Part shown: positions 8,694 to 53,679 of the stretch, piece after piece
How the letters are laid out: the number at the start of each line of letters is the position of its first letter
Position numbering within the stretch: the stretch's first letter is position 1
Assembly (NCBI GenBank): GCA_002687795.1
Contig: NZBG01000004.1
Span: 1 to 54,734, forward strand
Length of the DNA stretch: 54,734 nucleotides
DNA from: Candidatus Woesearchaeota archaeon
Lineage (GTDB): Archaea > Nanobdellota > Nanobdellia > Woesearchaeales > GCA-2687795
Reading direction: 5' to 3'
Translations under genes and position numbers: made by a program
The notes under the pieces: model-generated
The model's input: the letters and a program-made list of their open reading frames with translations, nothing else
The model's database searches: none
Told to the model about the DNA's origin: nothing

Positions 8694-8765
8694 GGCGGTA
8701 GTAGTTTAATGGTAGAATATACGGTTGTGGTCCGTATGAAGCGAGTTCAATTCTCGCCTACCGCC
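8694..8765 (+). tRNA. tRNA-His (anticodon GTG) with a genome-encoded G-1
   Basis: Hand-folded cloverleaf. G-1 pairs with C73, acceptor GCGGTAG/CTACCGC, anticodon arm TACGG-TTGTGGT-CCGTA, T arm GCGAG-TTCAATT-CTCGC. Confidence 0.9.
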
Positions 8766-8770
8766 CTTTT
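8748..8770 (+). repeat. Direct repeat copy 1 (3' end of tRNA-His plus 5 nt), att-like
   Basis: caattctcgcctaccgccctttt is identical to 9885..9907. Its last 14 nt fall within the 16-nt match 8757..8772 = 8872..8887. Confidence 0.8.
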
Positions 8771-19149: not shown

Positions 19150-21168
19150 TTATAAGCGGGATATGAAACCCCTTCTCGGCTCGAACACATCACCGCTCCT
19201 TCTTAACCTTTCAATAACCTCTTCTACCTTATCCTCCTCTATCTTCTGCTCTTTGGCCTCTTTTACAACATCTTCAATTGGAATGGTCTTCCCGATTGTT
19301 TTCTCCAGGTCATTTATGATATCTTTGATAATAATAATAACATTTCTTTGAGAAGCAGTGATTCCTGTTGTGATTCTGTCGATATCAATCTTGCCGGTCT
19401 CCTTATCAAATCCAACCTGCATCAGGCAATATTCTAATTGCTCAATACCTCTTACAGCATCCCTTTTAGTTACCCTGTTTGACAACCTTACCTTTGCAGA
19501 AGCTTCCGCTAACCTTACCAAAGCTTCCAGTTGTCTTGGCGAGATAGGGATTGTCTTAACGCTTCCCTCTGTTGATCCGCTTGCCCTCATCCTGAGATAA
19601 TACTCTCTAATCTCTTCCATCGCTGCGGTTGTAAGTTTTGGCTTAAACCTTTGCTTTGCGTAAGCAATATATTTCTTCAGCAGTTTGGTAGGGATTTCAG
19701 GTACTATCTTATCCGGCTCCTGATGAAGGCTTAATATATGGGAAGCCATCATAGTATCCTTCTCTTTATCAGGCAGATCCTTAATAGGGAAAATCAAATC
19801 AAACCTGTTGATTAAGGTTGGTGGCAGGTCTATCTGCTCGCCAATAACTCCGTATGGGTCAAACCTTCCAAACTTTGGGTTGGCTGCAGCTAACACTGTA
19901 GTCCTTGCTAACAAAGTAGCCTGGATATTAGCCTTGCTGATACTAACTGTCTGCTGCTCCAATGCTTCATGCATAGCGCTCCTATCCTCCGGGCTCATCT
20001 TATCCATCTCATCAATCGCGCAGATTCCATTGGAAGCCAGAACTAAAGCTCCTGCTTCAAGGCTCCAGCCTTTTAAGAATTCATCCTTTACAACTGAAGC
20101 GGTAAGGCCTGCTCCGCTTACTCCTCTCCCGGTTACATACCTTCCCTTTGGCGCAATAACTCCTACTCTCTTTAATAATTGGCTCTTGCCAGCACCAGGA
20201 TCTCCAACAAGAAGAACATGCATATCACCCCTTGAGATAGCGCCATCAGACCTTACCTTTGGCACTCCTCCCATTAACTGTAGGATAAGAGCCTCCTTTA
20301 TCTTCTCATAGCCGTAAATAGAAGGCGCAATTGAATTAATTATTCTCTTATAGACATTCTTATCTTTTGCAATATCTTTTATCTGCTTCTCCTCTTTCTC
20401 TGAAATGTCTATCTCATAAAACGTTTCTTCCATGGCAGTTAAGCTATTGGCTTCTATAAGAAGATCAAACCTTGTTGACTTCCCGCCTGACTTTAATATT
20501 ATCGGCACTTCTTTAATAATCCCTACAATATTGATTTTTGAGCCGGGTGAACTCTTTCTCTCACTCAAAGGGCTTACAAGGTCTCCCTTCAGGAAAATAT
20601 TCATCCTCTTTGGCTGCTCTCCGCCTTCTATATTCTCAGGCGACTCCTCCAACACAATGCCCTGGGCGTCTATCAGCTCCTTGTTAATAAGCTTAAACTT
20701 TCCTTTTCTTCCGCAGCCGCACCTGGAAGGCTCCTTAAACTGGGAATCCAGCTGAAGCACAGAGATTATATTGCCGCATGAAGGGCACTCAAACTTGGCT
20801 GCTGTAACCTGGGGCCTTACATCACTCTTCTGCCTTACAATCCCTTCCACCACCACCAGCTTGCCGATATGCTCACTTCTGATATTCCGTATCATTATCT
20901 TCTGGGAAGGAGGAAGGTTCTCCAGCCTTAGCTTAAAATCCTTGACTTCAGCAGGCAGGTCAAACTGCTCAATTGAAAGCTCAGCTGCCTTAATAACCTC
21001 TTCAGGCTGTTCCAATAGAATATCTCCTAACTCTGGGTCAAACTTTAAAAGTTCAGTAAAGTCAATAACAATAGATTTAGCGCCGGTCCTAACATTCTCT
21101 AACAAAACTCCCTGGTAAACATCTTCAAAGAACTGATGAAACCTTTTAATCTGTTCAGTTACTTCCAT
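19150..21168 (-). CDS. mcm: MCM replicative helicase
   Basis: Zn finger CPSCG...CGCG, Walker A GDPGAGKS, Walker B CAIDEMDK, arginine finger SRFDL-like NRFDLIF and a C-terminal wH. Start trimmed to MEVTEQ at 21168. Confidence 0.92.
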   Translation of the reverse strand: MEVTEQIKRFHQFFEDVYQGVLLENVRTGAKSIVIDFTELLKFDPELGDILLEQPEEVIKAAELSIEQFDLPAEVKDFKLRLENLPPSQKIMIRNIRSEHIGKLVVVEGIVRQKSDVRPQVTAAKFECPSCGNIISVLQLDSQFKEPSRCGCGRKGKFKLINKELIDAQGIVLEESPENIEGGEQPKRMNIFLKGDLVSPLSERKSSPGSKINIVGIIKEVPIILKSGGKSTRFDLLIEANSLTAMEETFYEIDISEKEEKQIKDIAKDKNVYKRIINSIAPSIYGYEKIKEALILQLMGGVPKVRSDGAISRGDMHVLLVGDPGAGKSQLLKRVGVIAPKGRYVTGRGVSGAGLTASVVKDEFLKGWSLEAGALVLASNGICAIDEMDKMSPEDRSAMHEALEQQTVSISKANIQATLLARTTVLAAANPKFGRFDPYGVIGEQIDLPPTLINRFDLIFPIKDLPDKEKDTMMASHILSLHQEPDKIVPEIPTKLLKKYIAYAKQRFKPKLTTAAMEEIREYYLRMRASGSTEGSVKTIPISPRQLEALVRLAEASAKVRLSNRVTKRDAVRGIEQLEYCLMQVGFDKETGKIDIDRITTGITASQRNVIIIIKDIINDLEKTIGKTIPIEDVVKEAKEQKIEEDKVEEVIERLRRSGDVFEPRRGFISRL

Positions 21169-21262
21169 TTTTAGTACTGATTTTACCCCCAAAAAGACAC
21201 TTACATCTAACTCAATAAAAAACTGAAGCAGAACTCCTTTATATTCTTTTATCTTTTGTGAA

Positions 21263-21354
21263 GTATAGTAAATGACATAACTAATTGACCAGCGAGTCAT
21301 TTACTATACCAGGAAAACAAATCTTTAAATTTGTTTTCCGCTGTATAGTAAATG
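21263..21354. promoter_or_regulatory. 12-mer triple repeat plus 28-nt palindrome upstream of mcm
   Basis: gtatagtaaatg occurs at 21263-21274 and 21343-21354, with its reverse complement at 21298-21309. ggaaaacaaat-ctttaa-atttgttttcc spans 21312-21339. Confidence 0.5.
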
Positions 21355-26743: not shown

Positions 26744-28447
26744 TTAAGCCTCTTTCTTCTTTTCTCCCTCTTCTTTCTTCTCTTTTACTTTCTCTTTCTT
26801 CCCTATCTTAGCAAACTCCTTATCATACTCAGGGTTATCAATCCTGATCTCCTCAAGCTTGCCCCTCTTCTTCTCCAGAATATTCTTTAACAGCTTCTCC
26901 ACCCTATCCTTCTGAGAAACTTTTAAGTCAATAATATCTTTCAGGGCATCGCTGATATGAGGAATATAAATCTCTATATAATCCCTCTTCTTTGACTCAT
27001 CCTGGATCCTTTTCTTCTTATGTATATAAAGCCCTAACTTTCTCCCGCACTCCTGCAAGGCCAGCTTAATCTCCTTAATAATCTCAGGGTAATGGGCAAT
27101 TGCCTCCTTGCTCTCTGAAGTATAAGGAACCCAGACCGAAGCAAGATGAACCACTAAAGTTAAAGGGCCTGCAGGCAAAGCTCCTGAGCTCTGGCTCAGT
27201 CCGTAAGAGCGCCAGTTAGTTGTCAAAACACTCTTTGTAACGCTGCAAGCTCCCTGCTGATAAAGCAATGGAACCCTGTTTGCAAACCTGTACAATGTGA
27301 TTGACTGCTCAGCCGGCTGCTCCCCTCCATAAGCGCAGGCAACCTCAACAACAAAAGGATTTCCTCTATAAACATTAGGCGGCCTTGTTGAAGCAGCATA
27401 AAACTCTGCATTTACCTCCTTCCTCAAACCCTTCTCTAAAAGCTCAGCTCCCAGAGGAGAAATGCAGTCAGTGGGAGGAGAGATTATCTTGGTTCCATTA
27501 ATACCCTTCAACAAGCTCTCAGCCATCTCCCTGCTAACTGAATGAGGCTTTGTTTTAGGCAATAAAGCAGCATTCTCGCAGATCTGCTTGGCTGTGCCTG
27601 AGCCCACCCTTGAAAACTCGTTCATCAAAAAGCTCTGCAATGTTCTGGACTCTGTCCATTTCAGCATGTTCATCAGCCTTCCAATTTCAACGCCATAAGG
27701 GTGAGGCTTAATCTCAACAGGCTTCTTAGGCATAGAATCAGTTGCCCTGGCAAAAATAAGCTGCTCTCCCTTAGGAGGCTGGTAGATTAAAGTAATATGA
27801 GGGTTAACAATAGCAGTCTGCTTCAAATACTGGTCAATGCTCTGGTCCCCTTTCTGATAGCTGCCTTCCAGGTCAAGCTCAACCTTGGTTCCATGCTCTT
27901 TCTCCCATTCTATAACCTCTTCTTTAACTATCTCAGGCTTATTCTTCTGTGTATCAATCTTTAACTCATAAAAATGCGCGGGATGCTTAGGATCTATCTT
28001 AGAGATTATCCTTGCAGCTTTTCCTGTTGTTAACTGTGCATACATAACAGAAGCTGAAATCCCTATCCCCTGCTGCCCCCTCGACTGTGACAGCTTAAAA
28101 AACTTAGAGCCATAAAGCAGCCTTGCAAAAATATGCGGTATTTGCTTCTTAACAATACCCGGACCATTATCCTCAACAATAACTTTAAACCGATTCTCGC
28201 TCATCTCTATGACTTCAACACTCACCTCAGGCAATATATCTGCCTCTTCGCAGGCATCAAGGCTGTTATCAACAGCTTCCTTTATAGTTGTCAGCAAAGC
28301 TTTCCTCTTATTATCAAACCCAAGAAGATGCCTGTTTCTCTCAAAGAACTGCGAGATTGAAACCTCACGCTGCTTCTTAGCCAGTTCTACGGCAATAGGC
28401 TCCTCTGCGTTATCCACTTGGTCAAGCTTGTTTTGTTCTTCTGCCAT
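26744..28447 (-). CDS. top6B: DNA topoisomerase VI subunit B
   Basis: GHKL Bergerat fold (KEAVDNSLDA, DNGPGI, GQQGIG) with the ISQFFE..RHLLGF N-terminal signature. K/E-rich C-terminal tail. Confidence 0.92.
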   Translation of the reverse strand: MAEEQNKLDQVDNAEEPIAVELAKKQREVSISQFFERNRHLLGFDNKRKALLTTIKEAVDNSLDACEEADILPEVSVEVIEMSENRFKVIVEDNGPGIVKKQIPHIFARLLYGSKFFKLSQSRGQQGIGISASVMYAQLTTGKAARIISKIDPKHPAHFYELKIDTQKNKPEIVKEEVIEWEKEHGTKVELDLEGSYQKGDQSIDQYLKQTAIVNPHITLIYQPPKGEQLIFARATDSMPKKPVEIKPHPYGVEIGRLMNMLKWTESRTLQSFLMNEFSRVGSGTAKQICENAALLPKTKPHSVSREMAESLLKGINGTKIISPPTDCISPLGAELLEKGLRKEVNAEFYAASTRPPNVYRGNPFVVEVACAYGGEQPAEQSITLYRFANRVPLLYQQGACSVTKSVLTTNWRSYGLSQSSGALPAGPLTLVVHLASVWVPYTSESKEAIAHYPEIIKEIKLALQECGRKLGLYIHKKKRIQDESKKRDYIEIYIPHISDALKDIIDLKVSQKDRVEKLLKNILEKKRGKLEEIRIDNPEYDKEFAKIGKKEKVKEKKEEGEKKKEA

Positions 28448-29054: not shown

Positions 29055-29110
29055 TCTTAATACCTAGTTGTTTATTAAGATTTCCTATGTTTGCGAGAAT
29101 TAGTAATTCG

Positions 29111-29182
29111 GAATGTTGTTTAAAAGGGGTTGTTAAGTTCTTTTCCCCTACGAAGTAGGGGAGGGAAGTATGACGGAGGGAC
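29111..29182. repeat. Conserved intergenic element, copy A (partner at 53707..53782)
   Basis: By-eye alignment gives roughly 75 percent identity. It includes the shared gaagtatgacg core and the c.cta.gaagta.g and aatgtt blocks. Confidence 0.55.
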
Positions 29183-30031
29183 TCGCCGCAATAAAGTGCT
29201 TAGCACCATTAAGCAACAGAAGAAAGGAGTAAATCTAGTAGAAGTGAATTATATTTTCTTCTTAATTTTTTCATATATCCAGGTTAATATAATTATTATA
29301 AAACCATGAAATAAGTTATATATTAAATATTTATTAGTAACAATAGTTAATTCACCAATAATAACAGAATTTAGAATTAAAAGGATTGGATGAAGACTAA
29401 AAATAAAAACAAAAGGAATAATTTTTTTTAAATTAATTTCTGTCTTAGAGTATTTCCATACCCAAGCAATTAAGACTAAAATGGTAAATACAACTAAAAT
29501 AAATGATATTATCCAAAGATGACCAAATATGTCCTTGTATTTGATTAAAAAATATATATCACGAAATCGAAATATGATGGCTCCTATTAAGAATAAGATA
29601 ATGGTTATTCTCGCAAAAATTATAAAATTTTTTTCTATTTATATTAAGTTGGATAGCGATCTTTGGATTACTATTTACTGATGAATTACCATTAGATTAT
29701 ATTGTTACTGGAATGTATTTTTGTTATTCAGTTTTATTTTTATGTCAATCATTTATTTTCTTAACCACTAAATATGTTGGCTATTATACATCACCATTTA
29801 AAAAAATGAGCCATAATAAAATTGCTGGAATAATACTCCTTTTAATTGGACTTGGACTTTTGATTACTACGTTAGTTTCTTATGTAATTGTTTAATTAAG
29901 CCCTGAAATTATAATTGTGCATAATATCTTTTAAACGAACCTTTAATAAGAATAAATATCTTCCCAAACACCATCTTTTAAATATAGAAAACTATTTAAA
30001 CAAAATGCTTTAAACTATTCAGTGAGGGTTA

Positions 30032-30705: not shown

Positions 30706-31098
30706 ATGCTTACACTACAATTTATGGCTTACTCAGAGATAGAGAACCTGAACTCATCTAATAGGATTAAGAAGATATTGGATATAGTTAAAGAGAATAA
30801 GATTGTGCTGCTTGAAGGAAAGCTAAAGAAGGAAGAGGAAGCCAGCTTAATACAGGCAACCATGGAAGAAATCAACAACAAATTCAAAGGCATAGAGCTA
30901 AGCGCCTTTGACTATGCAAAAGGAGAAGAGGTTTTTATTAACAAGCTGAGAAAGAACTTTGCAAGGTTCTTATTAGGGCATAGAAATGGGATGACTATAA
31001 TCGGGCCTGCATCAATTGTCAAAGAAATCAAAAAAGATCCTAATAAAATAGAACTGCTAACCAAAGATGGAAATAAAAAAAGGTCAAAAAAGAGGTGA
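30706..31098 (+). CDS. Archaeal conserved protein (DUF2073-like, from recollection of the GTPase-linked family)
   Basis: 130-aa ORF between the GTPase and the Zn-ribbon gene. The assignment rests on gene order and is unverified. Confidence 0.45.
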   Translation: MLTLQFMAYSEIENLNSSNRIKKILDIVKENKIVLLEGKLKKEEEASLIQATMEEINNKFKGIELSAFDYAKGEEVFINKLRKNFARFLLGHRNGMTIIGPASIVKEIKKDPNKIELLTKDGNKKRSKKR

Positions 31099-31101
31099 AT
31101 A

Positions 31102-31485
31102 ATGCCACACCAATGTGTTGTCTGTAGTACCTTTTATGATGATGGCGCACAGGAGATTCTAAAAGGCTGCCCTTGCGGCGGCAAGCTCTTTTTTTATATT
31201 AAGAAGTCTAACATTGAAAAAGCAAAAAAGATAACTGAAGAAGCTAAATTAACAGAAATAGATAAAAAACAGATAGAACAGGATGTAAGGGAATTAGCAG
31301 GTGAAGAAGACAATGAAACACCTGTTGTGCTGGACTTAGAAGCTGTGAAGGTTATAAAGCCAGGCAAGTATGAACTTGACTTATTGCACTTGTTCAAGGG
31401 TGAGCCTTTGATATTCAAGCTGGAAGAAGGAAAGTATATAGTTGATTTGATTCAAAGCTTTAAGAACCTAAAAAAAGAGGGCTAG
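31102..31485 (+). CDS. Zn-ribbon protein (DUF2072/COG3364-like)
   Basis: N-terminal CVVC...CPCGG ribbon followed by a charged helical region. Confidence 0.55.
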   Translation: MPHQCVVCSTFYDDGAQEILKGCPCGGKLFFYIKKSNIEKAKKITEEAKLTEIDKKQIEQDVRELAGEEDNETPVVLDLEAVKVIKPGKYELDLLHLFKGEPLIFKLEEGKYIVDLIQSFKNLKKEG

Positions 31486-35706: not shown

Positions 35707-37650
<1,944 letters not shown>

Positions 37651-44795: not shown

Positions 44796-45127
44796 ATGTA
44801 GGGCAAGAACTTAGCTTTCGCATCTAATGTGAGGAAAGTCCACCCACACAGCTGTTTTCAGCTGAAAAGAGCCACTCTTGAGAAAGAGTTCCTGAGAGGG
44901 AAGGCAACCCATTCAGAAAATAAACCACTTATTAAGAGTATGATGCTGCGAAGCCTTGAGGCGACTTGGGGCGAGTTAACCAGCTGACGTTTTAGTAAGA
45001 AAGGATGAAACATGGGACCTGGTCTGTGCAAGTTCATTGCAACGCTTAGTTAAATGCTAAGGCAGGCTATCGCAACATCTGTTGCACAAAAGGGCCTGAC
45101 AGAAGGTGGCTTATTCCTACCCTACAT
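44796..45127 (+). ncRNA. rnpB: RNase P RNA
   Basis: Universal CR-I GAGGAAAGTCC at about 44833 and CR-V ACAGAAGGTGGCTTA at about 45099. P1 pairs atgtaggg with ccctacat. A T8 run follows the 3' end. Confidence 0.85.
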
Positions 45128-46697: not shown

Positions 46698-46707
46698 ATA
46701 TTTAAAA
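46698..46707 (+). promoter_or_regulatory. TATA-like box upstream of tRNA-Leu
   Basis: atatttaaaa lies 32-41 nt upstream of the tRNA 5' end. Confidence 0.3.
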
Positions 46708-46738: not shown

Positions 46739-46925
46739 GCGGGGATGCCGGAGTGGCCAAACGGGATAGAGTTTAGTCACAGAGGTACTAAATATCCACA
46801 CTCAAGTCATTTGAGTTATGAGGTCTCACAAAAGACCAATGAATTGCTCGTGAGCCATCTATTGGCTTAGTGCCTACTAGGGTTCAAAACAACTGAGGAA
46901 GTTGATGAAAGTCCCTATCCCCGCA
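46739..46925 (+). tRNA. tRNA-Leu (anticodon CAA), class II, with three introns (46770..46799, 46807..46856, 46889..46911)
   Basis: Acceptor GCGGGGA/TCCCCGC and A73. After removing three BHB-bounded introns, the 84-nt product has anticodon arm ATAGA-CTCAAGA-TCTAT, a 15-nt variable arm and T arm TAGGG-TTCAAAT-CCCTA. A T-run follows. Confidence 0.8.
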
Positions 46926-46983
46926 TTTTTTCTGCCATAAAACAAAAACATTAAAATAACATCTCCTCTTACCCATCATTTTA

Positions 46984-51051: not shown

Positions 51052-51137
51052 AAAGAATCAAAGCTCTACCTTCTTCTTATCTTTCATTGCGGTAGGAGCC
51101 TGGCCTCCATGCCATGTAAACCTTGGCCTAACCCTCA
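51052..51137. repeat. 86-bp direct repeat, proximal copy (functional 3' end of the ATPase gene)
   Basis: See 49756..49841. Confidence 0.85.
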
Positions 51138-53679
51138 TTGCATACATTCTTTCATTCATGTCATCTATAGCAATAGCTGAGCCTTTAACCCTTGGCAGGT
51201 TATCAAGCTGTTTGTCTAAACCTTCCCTCATATAGCTCTGCATCAGCATTCCCAATGCTTCGGTGTCAAGCTTTGCGGTGATCCTATGGCTAAGGATAAC
51301 ATCTGACTGCGTCATAACATCTGTATGTATCTTGCCAGGCTGCTGTGTTGCCAGGATTAAAGAAACACCAGGTTGCCTACCTTCTCTAAGAATTGTAACA
51401 ATAGCATCAGTTGCAGCTGTCTTGCCCTTCAAAGGCGCAAACTCATGCGCTTCATCAATAGCCATCCATACCAAAGGCATCTCCTGCTTTTCCTCTTTCT
51501 CTTCAGCAAAATACTCTGTTGCTGTGGAAACAGCGCCATACTCTTCCTTCTTTCTTGCAACCATCCTTTGTATAAACAGTTTCTGGGCTACGATCCCAAT
51601 AACCAATGCTTTTACCTTCCATCCTCCAGGGGCTGTTGCATAACAGCTCACATCAAGCACAGTAACCTGGCCAGGGGCAGCAAGCTCACTAATTTCTGTG
51701 CCTTTCTCGCTAAAAACTCCCCAGTCTTTTGTGGCCTCAAACCTGTTCTCAGCAGCATCCTTAACAGCCTTCTCCACTTTAGTATCCTTCCTGATAACAT
51801 CAAGAATATCATCCATGGAAAAATTCTTCTTTTTCTTTTTCAGGTCCAGAATAATTCTTTCAATAAACACACCTAAAGGGTCAGTGGATTTCAACTCAAA
51901 GGTCAGCCACCAGTCCTCAGGATTCAACTCAGAAGGCTTGATGGAAAAGGGAAAATCTGTGGGAATGCCCTGCTCTTTATACTTCTTATAATACCCAGTA
52001 GGTGTATAAATCTGGATATTAAGCCCTTTAGGCTTTAAGCCCCATTCATTCAAAAGCTCCTTATCCTTCATATTAGGATACTTCATAGTCCAGTAGATGC
52101 CCATTGTATCCAGTAATATTATAGAAAGATTATTTGAGATTTCCTTTGGGAGGTCTGTCATGCCTTCTGCTATGACGCCCATGGTGTAGCTATTATGCAC
52201 GATAATGTCATTCGCAACAAAATTATGGTTTTCTGGGACAGATATGTCGTAAACAGTGAAGTTTCCTTGCAATTTCTCCATATAAACTATCTCATCCCAG
52301 AATATGTCAGATGCTGCTAGATTCTTAATGAAAGTGTTATTATCAGTAATAGCCATCTGGAGAAGTTTTTGCCTTGAAGGAGCATAGTTAATGCTACTTC
52401 TAGCAGCTTTTGGGCTGGAGTATCCTAATCCTTTACCAACTTTTACCCAGCTTTCAGGTCTATAAGAATCCCATAATTCCTTAGGGACTGTGTCTATGTT
52501 AGGATTTCTTTTACTCGATTCGGTTTCTCTTAAAGCTTTATTTTGTCTTTCTTCCTTCTCTCCGAAGAATCCTATCTCTTGTATGAATTTATACACTTTC
52601 TCCCCTTTGATTTTAATTTCGTAAGTACTAAAACTTTTTTTATTTAGTTTCATAGTTTTAGTTCTTATTTTGGATAAAACCTCAAATCGTAATAATAAAT
52701 GCTGTACTTGATGGATAAGTTCTCTTGAAGAAGAGCAATAGGAAATTCTCCAGGATCTACTATCTTTTTCAAAGTATAAAGAGCCATCACAACTAAATAA
52801 CCTGTTTAAGAATAACTTCATATTGGACTTTGAGGATTTAAACATAATCTTTGGAATAATCTTTTCTTTAGATTTTAATCCATAAATACCTGTTTTATCT
52901 AGCCATAGCCTTAGAGAACTTTTATGGTGGAATTTACTGCCCTTTTCAAATTGTCCTTTTTCGTTTCTTATAGCTTTTTCTGTGCTCCTTTTGTTGTTTG
53001 CAGATATTCTGAAGCAGAATTCATTGCTATGTTGTTTAATTGTTAGATTAGAGTCAAAATCGTTCACAGCTCTATTAAAATCGTCTATGATTATCTTATC
53101 TTTGTTTGTGAATAATACAAATCTATTTCCTAAATGGCCTTCAGCAATAAGATAAGCTAGGAGCTTTATCTTATGCTCTTCAAGACTATCTTCTCCAAAT
53201 GCACTTATTATCCTTGGTGTAGCAATCCTTGAACCTGCGTTTAGCTCTTCAGCTGGAATCCAACCATTAATTGTTAAAAGAGGATGCTCAGGAGTTAGTT
53301 TTATCTCCTTTCCACTCCTTAGTTTTATATGTAAGAGTTCATTAACATTTCTTTTAAAGAAACCAGATTTCTGGGCTTTATTTATCTTAAGTTCCTTATT
53401 AAGGCTTAAAATATCATGGTCATCATATTCAAGGTCTTTAATGGGAATAGTACTACCATCATTTAGCGTTATTAAAGTATCACCATCAAGACACTTCCCG
53501 CCGCCTCTCTTACCGCAGACAAACACAATATGAGAATTTGTAACATCCATATAAATATTATTAGAAAGCGAGGTAACCTGGCCCATCTTAACATAATGCC
53601 TGCCAAGAAGCACTGCTCCCTTTTTACCATACTTCACCCTATCTTTCTCATTCCTTCCAAGAATAATATCATAGACCAT
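51058..53679 (-). CDS. HerA/DUF87-family P-loop ATPase containing an intein
   Basis: The exteins join to give Walker A GKRGGGK|S. Walker B is WMAIDEAHEF. The extein totals 439 aa, typical of archaeal DUF87 ATPases. Confidence 0.85.
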   Translation of the reverse strand: MVYDIILGRNEKDRVKYGKKGAVLLGRHYVKMGQVTSLSNNIYMDVTNSHIVFVCGKRGGGKCLDGDTLITLNDGSTIPIKDLEYDDHDILSLNKELKINKAQKSGFFKRNVNELLHIKLRSGKEIKLTPEHPLLTINGWIPAEELNAGSRIATPRIISAFGEDSLEEHKIKLLAYLIAEGHLGNRFVLFTNKDKIIIDDFNRAVNDFDSNLTIKQHSNEFCFRISANNKRSTEKAIRNEKGQFEKGSKFHHKSSLRLWLDKTGIYGLKSKEKIIPKIMFKSSKSNMKLFLNRLFSCDGSLYFEKDSRSWRISYCSSSRELIHQVQHLLLRFEVLSKIRTKTMKLNKKSFSTYEIKIKGEKVYKFIQEIGFFGEKEERQNKALRETESSKRNPNIDTVPKELWDSYRPESWVKVGKGLGYSSPKAARSSINYAPSRQKLLQMAITDNNTFIKNLAASDIFWDEIVYMEKLQGNFTVYDISVPENHNFVANDIIVHNSYTMGVIAEGMTDLPKEISNNLSIILLDTMGIYWTMKYPNMKDKELLNEWGLKPKGLNIQIYTPTGYYKKYKEQGIPTDFPFSIKPSELNPEDWWLTFELKSTDPLGVFIERIILDLKKKKKNFSMDDILDVIRKDTKVEKAVKDAAENRFEATKDWGVFSEKGTEISELAAPGQVTVLDVSCYATAPGGWKVKALVIGIVAQKLFIQRMVARKKEEYGAVSTATEYFAEEKEEKQEMPLVWMAIDEAHEFAPLKGKTAATDAIVTILREGRQPGVSLILATQQPGKIHTDVMTQSDVILSHRITAKLDTEALGMLMQSYMREGLDKQLDNLPRVKGSAIAIDDMNERMYAMRVRPRFTWHGGQAPTAMKDKKKVEL
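52192..53493 (-). mobile_element. 434-aa intein with a LAGLIDADG homing endonuclease domain, inserted in the Walker A loop
   Basis: Begins with Cys (CLDGDTLI). Block B is LTPEHPLL. LAGLIDADG motifs are LLAYLIAEGHL and FLNRLFSCDGSL. It ends IIVHN, followed by the +1 Ser. Confidence 0.85.

Follow-up and report, generated by a model that had tools for sequence, protein, structure and literature searches.

A tRNA-Leu(CAA) gene of marine Woesearchaeota with three predicted bulge-helix-bulge introns and a candidate kink-turn guide element in the canonical intron

Introduction

Transfer RNA (tRNA) genes with several introns are already known and have been reported for the DPANN archaea too. A survey of these lineages (Kaneta 2018, PMC5829648) charts multi-intron tRNAs that include one Woesearchaeota and one Pacearchaeota genome, describes the DPANN splicing endonuclease (EndA) as an alpha4 type with an added L3 loop that is associated with more tRNA gene disruption, and takes incomplete tRNA sets to point to hidden disrupted genes. 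Some archaeal tRNA introns do more than interrupt: the box C/D intron of euryarchaeal pre-tRNA-Trp directs methylation at positions 34 and 39 (Cm34 and Um39; PMC11408192). Stand-alone box C/D small RNAs (sRNAs) of Pyrococcus are predicted to target C34 of tRNA-Leu(CAA) (PMC7994747, PMC7668247). Here we analyse a tRNA-Leu(CAA) gene at positions 46739-46925 of contig NZBG01000004.1, a 54,734-nucleotide (nt) stretch from a Woesearchaeota assembly (GCA_002687795.1) that we call the window throughout. The gene very probably carries three introns, each with a motif of the bulge-helix-bulge (BHB) type, and the intron at the canonical position contains a conserved kink-turn next to a stretch complementary to the gene's own anticodon loop.

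Results

The predicted spliced product is a class II tRNA-Leu(CAA)

A sequence-only reading of the window had proposed that three introns split this gene, and every coordinate and sequence it gave proved correct when read again: removal of 46770-46799, 46807-46856 and 46889-46911 leaves an 84-nt class II tRNA-Leu(CAA), GCGGGGATGCCGGAGTGGCCAAACGGGATAGACTCAAGATCTATTGGCTTAGTGCCTACTAGGGTTCAAATCCCTATCCCCGCA, in which the anticodon loop (CTCAAGA) and the T loop (TTCAAAT) are at the consensus claimed for them. Anticodon arm and T arm are both non-contiguous in the unspliced gene. The spliced 84-mer has a 7-base-pair (bp) acceptor stem (GCGGGGA/TCCCCGC) followed by A73 at 46925, a D stem of 3 bp, a 5-bp anticodon stem (ATAGA/TCTAT), a long variable arm and the T stem TAGGG/CCCTA; 22 of the 23 scored cloverleaf pairs form, as many as in most uninterrupted relatives. 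CCA is not encoded at the 3' end. The locus is laid out as follows, in window coordinates.

46699-46707 (+): TATTTAAAA, a putative promoter element of TATA-like type that lies about 36 nt upstream of the mature 5' end, proposed from the sequence alone
46739-46925 (+): tRNA-Leu(CAA) gene, four exons and three introns
46739-46769 (+): exon 1, with the acceptor 5' strand, the D arm and anticodon stem positions 27-30
46770-46799 (+): intron 1, 30 nt, at position 30/31, with a relaxed HBh' motif
46800-46806 (+): exon 2, the 7-nt micro-exon ACTCAAG, A31 to G37, with the anticodon CAA at 46803-46805
46807-46856 (+): intron 2, 50 nt, at the canonical position 37/38
46810-46817 (+): antisense ('guide') element TTTGAGTT within intron 2, complementary to A31-A36/G37 (46800-46806)
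46818-46843 (+): kink-turn hairpin within intron 2, with D-like box, C-stem, 3-nt loop and G-A core
46857-46888 (+): exon 3, with A38, the anticodon stem 3' strand, the variable arm TGGCTTAGTGCCTAC, the T stem 5' strand and T loop positions 54-59
46889-46911 (+): intron 3, 23 nt, in the T loop at 59/60, with a near-strict hBHBh' motif
46912-46925 (+): exon 4, with T60, the T stem 3' strand, the acceptor 3' strand and discriminator A73
46926-46931 (+): T6 run directly 3' of A73, a probable archaeal transcription terminator, again judged from the letters only

In the same window, the genes for tRNA-His and RNase P RNA likewise have A/T-rich boxes at similar distances and end in a T-run, and the only open reading frames that overlap the tRNA locus are short ones of 63, 41 and 51 amino acids.

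ARAGORN calls the spliced 84-mer tRNA-Leu(caa). On the unspliced DNA it makes no call at the locus, with or without its intron option, and Rfam gives no match there at gathering or permissive thresholds; we attribute these misses to the triple interruption and do not count them as evidence against the gene. The sole window tRNA seen by standard tools is an uninterrupted tRNA-His(GTG) at 8695-8766 (+), which scores 63.3 bits in Rfam. Scored with a profile built from 27 uninterrupted relatives, the spliced product matches with 74.7 bits over positions 1-84, compared with 66.7-84.9 bits for the training genes and at most 3.8 bits for 200 shuffles, and the match is cut short or scores lower when any single intron is retained. 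The proposal that the 84-mer would score as a tRNA has thus been borne out by ARAGORN and, at full length, by the relatives' profile.

The three-intron parse also ranks first among all parses that have U33 and a Leu anticodon (166 versus 156 or less), and it is the only one among the Leu-anticodon parses with three 4-bp central helices. What fixes the micro-exon in its place is the Leu anticodon together with the 5-bp anticodon stem and the fit to the BHB motif, and alternative placements score lower. At the first junction the sequence is ambiguous between 30/31 and 31/32, as an A flanks both sides, and the BHB register favours 30/31.

tRNA-Leu genes of the clade are interrupted at recurrent sites

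The initial 26 nt of exon 1 conform to a clade-wide tRNA-Leu 5' pattern. Searching a species-representative genome collection with a degenerate form of this pattern yielded more than 120 loci, nearly all labelled Woesearchaeota, Pacearchaeota, Nanoarchaeota or Nanobdellota, and our census set comprises 103 distinct tRNA-Leu genes from Woesearchaeota, Pacearchaeota and Nanoarchaeota metagenome-assembled genomes. The mature length is exactly 84 nt in all tRNA-Leu genes retrieved, and the 27 uninterrupted ones share the architecture of the window gene, its variable arm included. Uninterrupted CAA genes score 54.7-57.2 bits with the Rfam tRNA model, which misses the interrupted ones.

Insertions were first mapped from homology and cloverleaf pairing only, and the unbiased BHB statistics given below come from these junctions; a refined parse then required U33 and a Leu anticodon and used BHB fit as a tie-breaker. 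By the refined parse, 27 of the 103 genes have no intron, 36 have one, 35 have two and five have three, with 72 introns at 37/38, 33 at 30/31 and 12 at 59/60. ARAGORN recognises 100 of the 103 spliced products as tRNA-Leu; given the unspliced genes in intron mode, it recovers none of the three-intron genes and four of the 35 two-intron genes. Three Leu(TAG) genes (L062, L074 and L123) match the window gene in all three intron sites, and a fourth (L076) is doubtful. Judged by this census, the three sites recur among the tRNA-Leu genes of the clade, and the window gene is typical of its lineage and not an oddity.

The sequence-only reading had described a 4-bp helix and 3-nt bulges at each of the sites 30/31, 37/38 and 59/60, with a fixed distance to the cut, and this geometry holds in the window gene. 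The same rule predicts the homology-derived junctions in the relatives: a 4-bp helix ending two nt before the junction is present in 12/12 introns at 59/60, in 21/26 at 30/31 and in 30/65 at 37/38 (a further 31/65 have 3 bp), compared with 1-2% at shifted registers, taken as the control at any site. Intron and exon strands of these central helices change in concert (for example GGAT:ATCC, GGAC:GTCC, GGTA:TACC and GGCA:TGCT), and all twelve 59/60 introns have in common a one-nt offset of the inner helix.

The retrieved set contained several further features of the family. In three metagenome tRNA-Leu(CAA) genes (L129, L138 and L143) the D loop, too, is interrupted, after GGCCAA, which gives the family a fourth intron site and these genes a different three-intron combination of D loop, 30/31 and 37/38. 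A second copy of the tRNA 3' part, GTGCCTAC, lies 40-100 nt downstream in L129, L136, L141 and L147 (degenerate in L140); it consists of the T arm, the 3' acceptor strand and the T-run, and a conserved hairpin, GGTTGATAAGGG-N5-7-CCCTTATGCGCG, stands in front of it. The copy could be an att-type duplication that an integrating element left behind, or else a spare 3' half, and none is present downstream of the window gene. DPANN-type archaeal tRNA-Leu genes also occur in records labelled Candidatus Woesebacteria bacterium GW2011_GWA1_38_8 (L030) and Candidatus Binatia bacterium (L054), and in many TPA (third-party annotation) bins labelled 'uncultured Methanosarcinales', all of which are probably mislabelled or contaminated.

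Anatomy of the three BHB motifs

In intron 1, the central helix GGAT:ATCC (46764-46767 with 46794-46797) is flanked by the bulges AGA and ACA (46768-46770 and 46798-46800), and the inner helix GTTTAGT:ACTAAAT (46771-46777 with 46787-46793) has 7 bp with one G-U; the minimum free energy (MFE) fold of 46760-46803 is exactly the predicted structure. Intron 2 has the central helix CTCA:TGAG (46801-46804 with 46851-46854) and the bulges AGT and CCA, with the predicted 3' cut at CC|A. The anticodon stem serves as its outer helix and can form in full only once intron 1 has been removed. For intron 3 the 5-bp T stem provides the outer helix, the central helix is TTCA:TGAA (46883-46886 with 46906-46909), the bulges AAA and AGT would be cut at AA|A and AG|T, and the inner helix CAACT:AGTTG (46890-46894 with 46900-46904) is offset by one unpaired purine, A46905. 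Here, too, the MFE fold is the predicted structure, with an ensemble frequency of 0.65. A box D'/C' K-loop reading of the motif CTGA-N6-TGATGA in intron 3 (46893-46908) was rejected: the motif is not conserved among the eleven remaining 59/60 introns, shares positions with the conserved inner helix, and is probably a coincidence.

Five observations weigh against a gene that is spliced in this way. The outer helix of intron 1 is 1 bp only; its central helix uses G25-U28 and so competes with D-stem pair 10:25 and anticodon-stem pairs 27:43 and 28:42; in the constrained fold, intron 2 has a 5' bulge of 7 nt rather than 3; and z-scores from single-sequence folding are weak (-0.9 to -1.8), so that the support rests on homology, covariation and the register tests. 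Finally, neither the window nor the 1 Mb of DNA taken from relatives yielded genes for EndA, RtcB, fibrillarin, Nop5 or L7Ae, the EndA, fibrillarin and L7Ae probes being approximate. With no EndA gene in the window or the relatives' loci, the enzymology rests on the literature. According to the folding models, relaxed endonuclease specificity would be demanded only by intron 1 and, in part, by the enlarged 5' bulge of intron 2, and the three motifs are not all optimal in one conformation, which suggests stepwise refolding and splicing. By analogy, the expected enzyme would be an alpha4 EndA with the L3 loop, and the broad specificity that the sequence-only reading had deduced for the endonuclease agrees with the DPANN survey (PMC5829648).

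Taken together, the comparative data make it very probable that the locus is a three-intron tRNA gene. The best explanation overall, in which we place nearly as high confidence, is a functional tRNA-Leu(CAA) gene of marine Woesearchaeota whose three BHB introns are spliced by protein enzymes.

Synteny, lineage and the presence or absence of the T-loop intron

The gene has a syntenic orthologue (L091) in Woesearchaeota ETNP3_MAG_14, where PCNA, RNase P RNA and tRNA-Leu follow one another as in the window; the flanks are 74-84% identical and the tRNA gene 91%. Introns 1 and 2 of this orthologue are clearly homologous to those of the window; its T loop is continuous, with no intron at 59/60, and its BLAST alignment to the window ends at 46887, two bases before the proposed start of intron 3. 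A further 23 metagenome relatives that share the intron 2/exon 3 junction possess introns 1 and 2 without exception and lack an intron at 59/60, three of them having the D-loop insertion instead. Intron 3, being absent from L091 and these 23 relatives, is by comparison of the sequences a lineage-specific insertion at a site that is recurrently hit in the clade. A 401-nt stretch of the locus is 100% identical across four independent assemblies of the window's population.

The sequence-only reading had connected three-intron tRNAs mainly with the Thermoproteales, and this link did not survive: hits of the 5' exon pattern are almost confined to Woesearchaeota, Pacearchaeota and Nanoarchaeota, and the synteny with L091 extends over DNA of 74-91% identity. 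Since the loci with the 26-nt pattern and the synteny both point to that clade, the host is, on sequence evidence, a marine member of the Woesearchaeota (DPANN, Nanobdellati) and not of the Thermoproteales. The archaeal RNase P RNA gene (Rfam RF00373, RNaseP_arch, 121 bits) lies at 44801-45122 (+), 1.6 kb upstream of the tRNA gene. The window, with a G+C content of 37%, also encodes MCM, TBP, Kae1, Topo VI-B, GyrB, a thermosome subunit and PCNA, and marine metagenome contigs from Tara Oceans and JGI carry the neighbouring dihydroorotase gene, its product being identical. RNase P RNA, MCM, TBP and Topo VI show that the DNA is archaeal. PCNA is also found near tRNA-Leu(CAA) in six other genomes (L010, L019, L028, L032, L088 and L114).

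A conserved kink-turn and an antisense element in intron 2

Downstream of the antisense element, intron 2 forms a predicted kink-turn from a D-like box ATGA (46818-46821), a C-stem in which GGTCT (46822-46826) pairs with AGACC (46833-46837), and a 3-nt loop AAT (46838-46840), after which G-A at 46841-46842 faces G-A at 46820-46821 and A46843 faces T46819. This is kink-turn geometry, with GA directly 5' of the helix on one strand and helix, 3-nt loop and GA on the other. Among CAA genes the 37/38 intron is conserved as TTTGAGT - N - (A/C)TGA - stem - loop - stem - (G/A)ATGAA.

A strict kink-turn motif is present in 29/45 long (at least 35 nt) 37/38 introns, versus 1.8 in shuffles, and in 0/27 short ones; counted over distinct CAA introns it is present in 39/50, and most of the others differ by one stem mismatch. 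The GA/GA core is invariant and the first (-1) stem pair is G-C, as in consensus kink-turns, while the second pair of the C-stem covaries (G-C, G-U, C-G, U-G, A-U), as does the third (U-A, C-G, G-U, G-C). The D-like box is AUGA in the window and the canonical CUGA in several relatives, and the C-like box is RAUGAA. From this conservation and covariation the kink-turn is likely to be real. Kink-turns within tRNA introns of DPANN archaea were nowhere described in the literature searched.

The antisense element stands in a constant register to the kink-turn: G46813, the fifth nt upstream of the D-like box, pairs with C34 (46803), and at this fixed spacing 5-6 of 6 pairs form in 35/39 CAA introns. 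The MFE fold of 46796-46862 forms the duplex between guide and anticodon loop, and this guide conformer (-13.5 to -15.0 kcal/mol) and the BHB conformer (-12.5 kcal/mol) are nearly isoenergetic alternatives. Kink-turn and guide occur together in relatives L009, L025, L029, L032, L046, L051, L058, L066, L080, L091, L099, L110, L112, L125-L147 and others.

The 37/38 introns of seven Leu(TAG) genes (L008, L016, L017, L026, L096, L115 and L116) have the same kink-turn and a different guide, AGGTGT, which pairs with the last two intron bases and A38-U41; its fifth position faces C39 in 4/7 and A38 in 2/7. As this pairing spans the 3' splice site, the Leu(TAG) element could act on the precursor only.

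Two other readings of intron 2 were considered and set aside. As a guide target, C56 of the T loop requires G-U pairs and disagrees with the isoacceptor-specific guides, and unmasked energy rescoring gives C34 as the consistent target. An H/ACA-type reading finds no ACA box and no upper stem between pocket and kink-turn.

The proposal that the kink-turn element guides Cm34 formation is, as far as these patterns go, finely balanced, and we put it forward tentatively. We hold with somewhat less assurance still the fuller prediction of a minimal one-kink-turn guide that acts on its own precursor as a 'modify, then splice' switch, with the Leu(TAG) sister element doing likewise for C39.

Proposed pathway

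We propose that transcription would start from the A/T-rich box about 36 nt upstream and end at the T6 run after A73, and that the ends would be trimmed by RNase P, the RNA gene of which lies upstream, and a 3' nuclease. In intron 2, L7Ae may bind the kink-turn and Nop5-fibrillarin may 2'-O-methylate C34 before splicing or in competition with it. The assembly site of L7Ae, Nop5 and fibrillarin would be 46810-46843, with the anticodon loop held in the guide duplex, and the BHB motif would form only after release. EndA would cut after the second nt of every 3-nt bulge that flanks a 4-bp helix, probably via successive refoldings, an RtcB-type ligase would join the four exons (31 + 7 + 32 + 14 nt) into the 84-nt tRNA, and CCA would be added post-transcriptionally. 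A published list of single-copy markers that are near-universal in archaea includes fibrillarin and Nop5 (PMC9258230), support of an indirect kind only for their being encoded in this genome.

Other features of the window

An 873-amino-acid protein encoded at 51058-53679 (-) contains an intein with a LAGLIDADG homing-endonuclease domain (residues ~63-497), and the C-terminal part of the intein's host protein resembles a HerA-type helicase. Genes for the origin-associated proteins OapB and OapC at 30706-31485 (+) adjoin a gene-poor stretch of ~1 kb without long open reading frames (29055-30031), with MCM in the vicinity at 19150-21300; the OapB/OapC region and the gene-poor stretch may be a replication origin. 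The window contains genes for both the Topo VI B subunit (26744-28447, -) and the DNA gyrase B subunit (35716-37650, +), and a gyrase is notable in a DPANN archaeon.

Discussion

Alternative explanations

The alternative that survives best concerns what the kink-turn of intron 2 does. It may be structural or act as a chaperone site, at which L7Ae aids folding, presents or masks the BHB motif, or marks the excised intron, with no guided methylation; the complementary stretch would then be an ordinary anticodon-intron helix, which it may simply be. We regard this as a credible though rather less probable account, and much of what weighs against a guide speaks for it. The element has degenerate boxes (AUGA, RAUGAA), and its duplex, formed in cis behind a loop of 3-5 nt, extends over 6-8 bp only. 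Neither a second kink-turn nor a CUGA/RUGAUGA pair was found at the intron ends, which leaves one kink-turn per intron. With a single kink-turn in place of two box sets, the element can be at most a 'half-mer' analogue and is not a canonical box C/D RNA. The guide also pairs with the T loop at C56, via G-U wobbles, and with the 3' part of the intron, where the fold of 46807-46856 has an extended non-canonical stem; and as duplex and BHB motif have similar energies, their exchange could be a folding or timing switch. A structural role does not account as readily for the fixed spacing between guide and D-like box, by which the fifth nt always faces C34, or for the Leu(TAG) guide AGGTGT, which points to C39 (4/7) or A38 (2/7), positions 34 and 39 being the targets of the tRNA-Trp intron (PMC11408192). 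Nor does it account for C34 of tRNA-Leu(CAA) being a predicted target of Pyrococcus box C/D sRNAs (PMC7994747, PMC7668247). A guide for C34 is the reading that we carry forward, with the reservations given above.

For the gene itself, we consider it very improbable that the locus is a decayed pseudogene whose insertions are never removed while a functional tRNA-Leu(CAA) gene lies elsewhere. The silence of the standard finders at the locus would fit decay, and, our evidence covering the window, a second copy may lie outside it. Against decay, however, the scored cloverleaf pairs are intact but for one, the loops are at consensus and a promoter-like box and a T-run are present; the BHB geometry, conserved and covarying among relatives, is exact at all three insertions; four independent assemblies agree fully at the locus; and, unlike in decay, introns 1 and 2 persist, their internal structure conserved, in the syntenic orthologue and in the 23 further relatives.

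It is just as improbable that the gene is real and should be parsed otherwise, with another 7-mer as micro-exon (for example 46817-46823, with the anticodon GAG) or with junctions shifted by at least one nt. By the sequence-only profile such parses are nearly equal (73.9 bits for the GAG parse, 71-74 bits for one-nt shifts), the first junction has the 30/31 versus 31/32 ambiguity, and the cloverleaf alone constrains a 7-nt exon weakly. Yet these parses forfeit one pair of the anticodon stem, and their central helices are 1-3 bp long versus 4, 4 and 4; ACTCAAG is common to all CAA orthologues, the uninterrupted ones included; and the other 7-mers fall within the conserved guide/kink-turn element.

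Chance resemblance in A/T-rich intergenic DNA, for which one might cite that 4-bp helices are common at random and that individual z-scores are weak, has a negligible probability and is already refuted by the comparative data, namely 74.7 bits versus at most 3.8 for shuffles, a 26-nt 5' pattern that finds more than 120 tRNA-Leu loci of one clade, homology backed by synteny with L091, and a BHB register test with 81-100% at the rule register (30/65 at 37/38) versus 1-2% at shifted ones.

Significance

As gene finders miss such genes, DPANN genomes look short of tRNA-Leu isoacceptors, and these apparent gaps bear on claims of genome reduction and host dependence. A single tRNA family with presence/absence polymorphism at recurrent sites, even between syntenic orthologues, offers a clean system for the gain and loss of BHB introns and suits the study of their co-evolution with a loop-bearing alpha4 EndA. 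If the kink-turn/guide element is active, intron-guided tRNA methylation would extend beyond tRNA-Trp to a second tRNA family and a first DPANN case of an intron-borne methylation guide, with a natural minimal box C/D substrate; it would also mean that a half-size, one-kink-turn guide can work in vivo. In the literature searched, three aspects appear new: the clade-wide recurrence of the sites 30/31, 37/38 and 59/60 (and the D loop) in tRNA-Leu, the presence or absence of the T-loop intron at the level of orthologues, and the conserved kink-turn/guide in the canonical introns of Leu(CAA) and Leu(TAG).

Comparison with known systems

The multi-intron tRNAs of Thermoproteales (Sugahara et al. 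2008, as related in PMC4033280) likewise have up to three BHB or relaxed introns at canonical and non-canonical sites, are relieved of them by EndA and are missed by standard finders. They differ from the present case in lineage, which here is DPANN Woesearchaeota, and in distribution, their introns being scattered, whereas those described here occupy a few recurrent sites (30/31, 37/38, 59/60 and the D loop) in one tRNA family. The enzymes are expected to differ as well, with an (alpha-beta)2 EndA bearing a Crenarchaea-specific loop in Thermoproteales versus an alpha4 type with the L3 loop here, following PMC5829648. Closer in descent are the disrupted tRNAs of N. equitans and ARMAN-1/2, which belong to the same superphylum and, by that survey, combine multi-intron tRNAs with a loop-bearing EndA. 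Our analysis adds gene structure, recurrent sites, three-intron cases (the window, L062, L074 and L123) and intron interiors, over ~100 genomes; the literature searched contained no description of these, and overlap with the survey's tables is possible. A eukaryotic nuclear tRNA gene with three introns resembles the window gene in its T-arm intron and in a BHB-recognising endonuclease, but its intron positions differ and the lineage is unrelated.

For the element in intron 2, the trans-acting Pyrococcus sRNAs have the same predicted target nt in the same tRNA species, but they are canonical sRNAs with two guides, whereas the guide proposed here lies inside its target's own intron. The nearest likeness is the euryarchaeal pre-tRNA-Trp intron (Clouet d'Orval 2001; Singh 2004; as related in PMC11408192 and PMC7994747), which also sits at 37/38, has kink-turn boxes and is antisense to its own anticodon arm; there, too, the targets are 34 and 39, and guide pairing and the BHB motif are mutually exclusive. 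The present intron differs from it in its tRNA-Leu host, in having a single hairpin-closed kink-turn (D-like box, stem-loop, C-like box) in place of full C/D and C'/D' sets, in a single predicted guide of 6-8 bp and in its degenerate boxes. Intron 2 of tRNA-Leu(CAA) is likely a single-kink-turn analogue of the tRNA-Trp intron guide, and its kink-turn resembles a box C'/D' pair.

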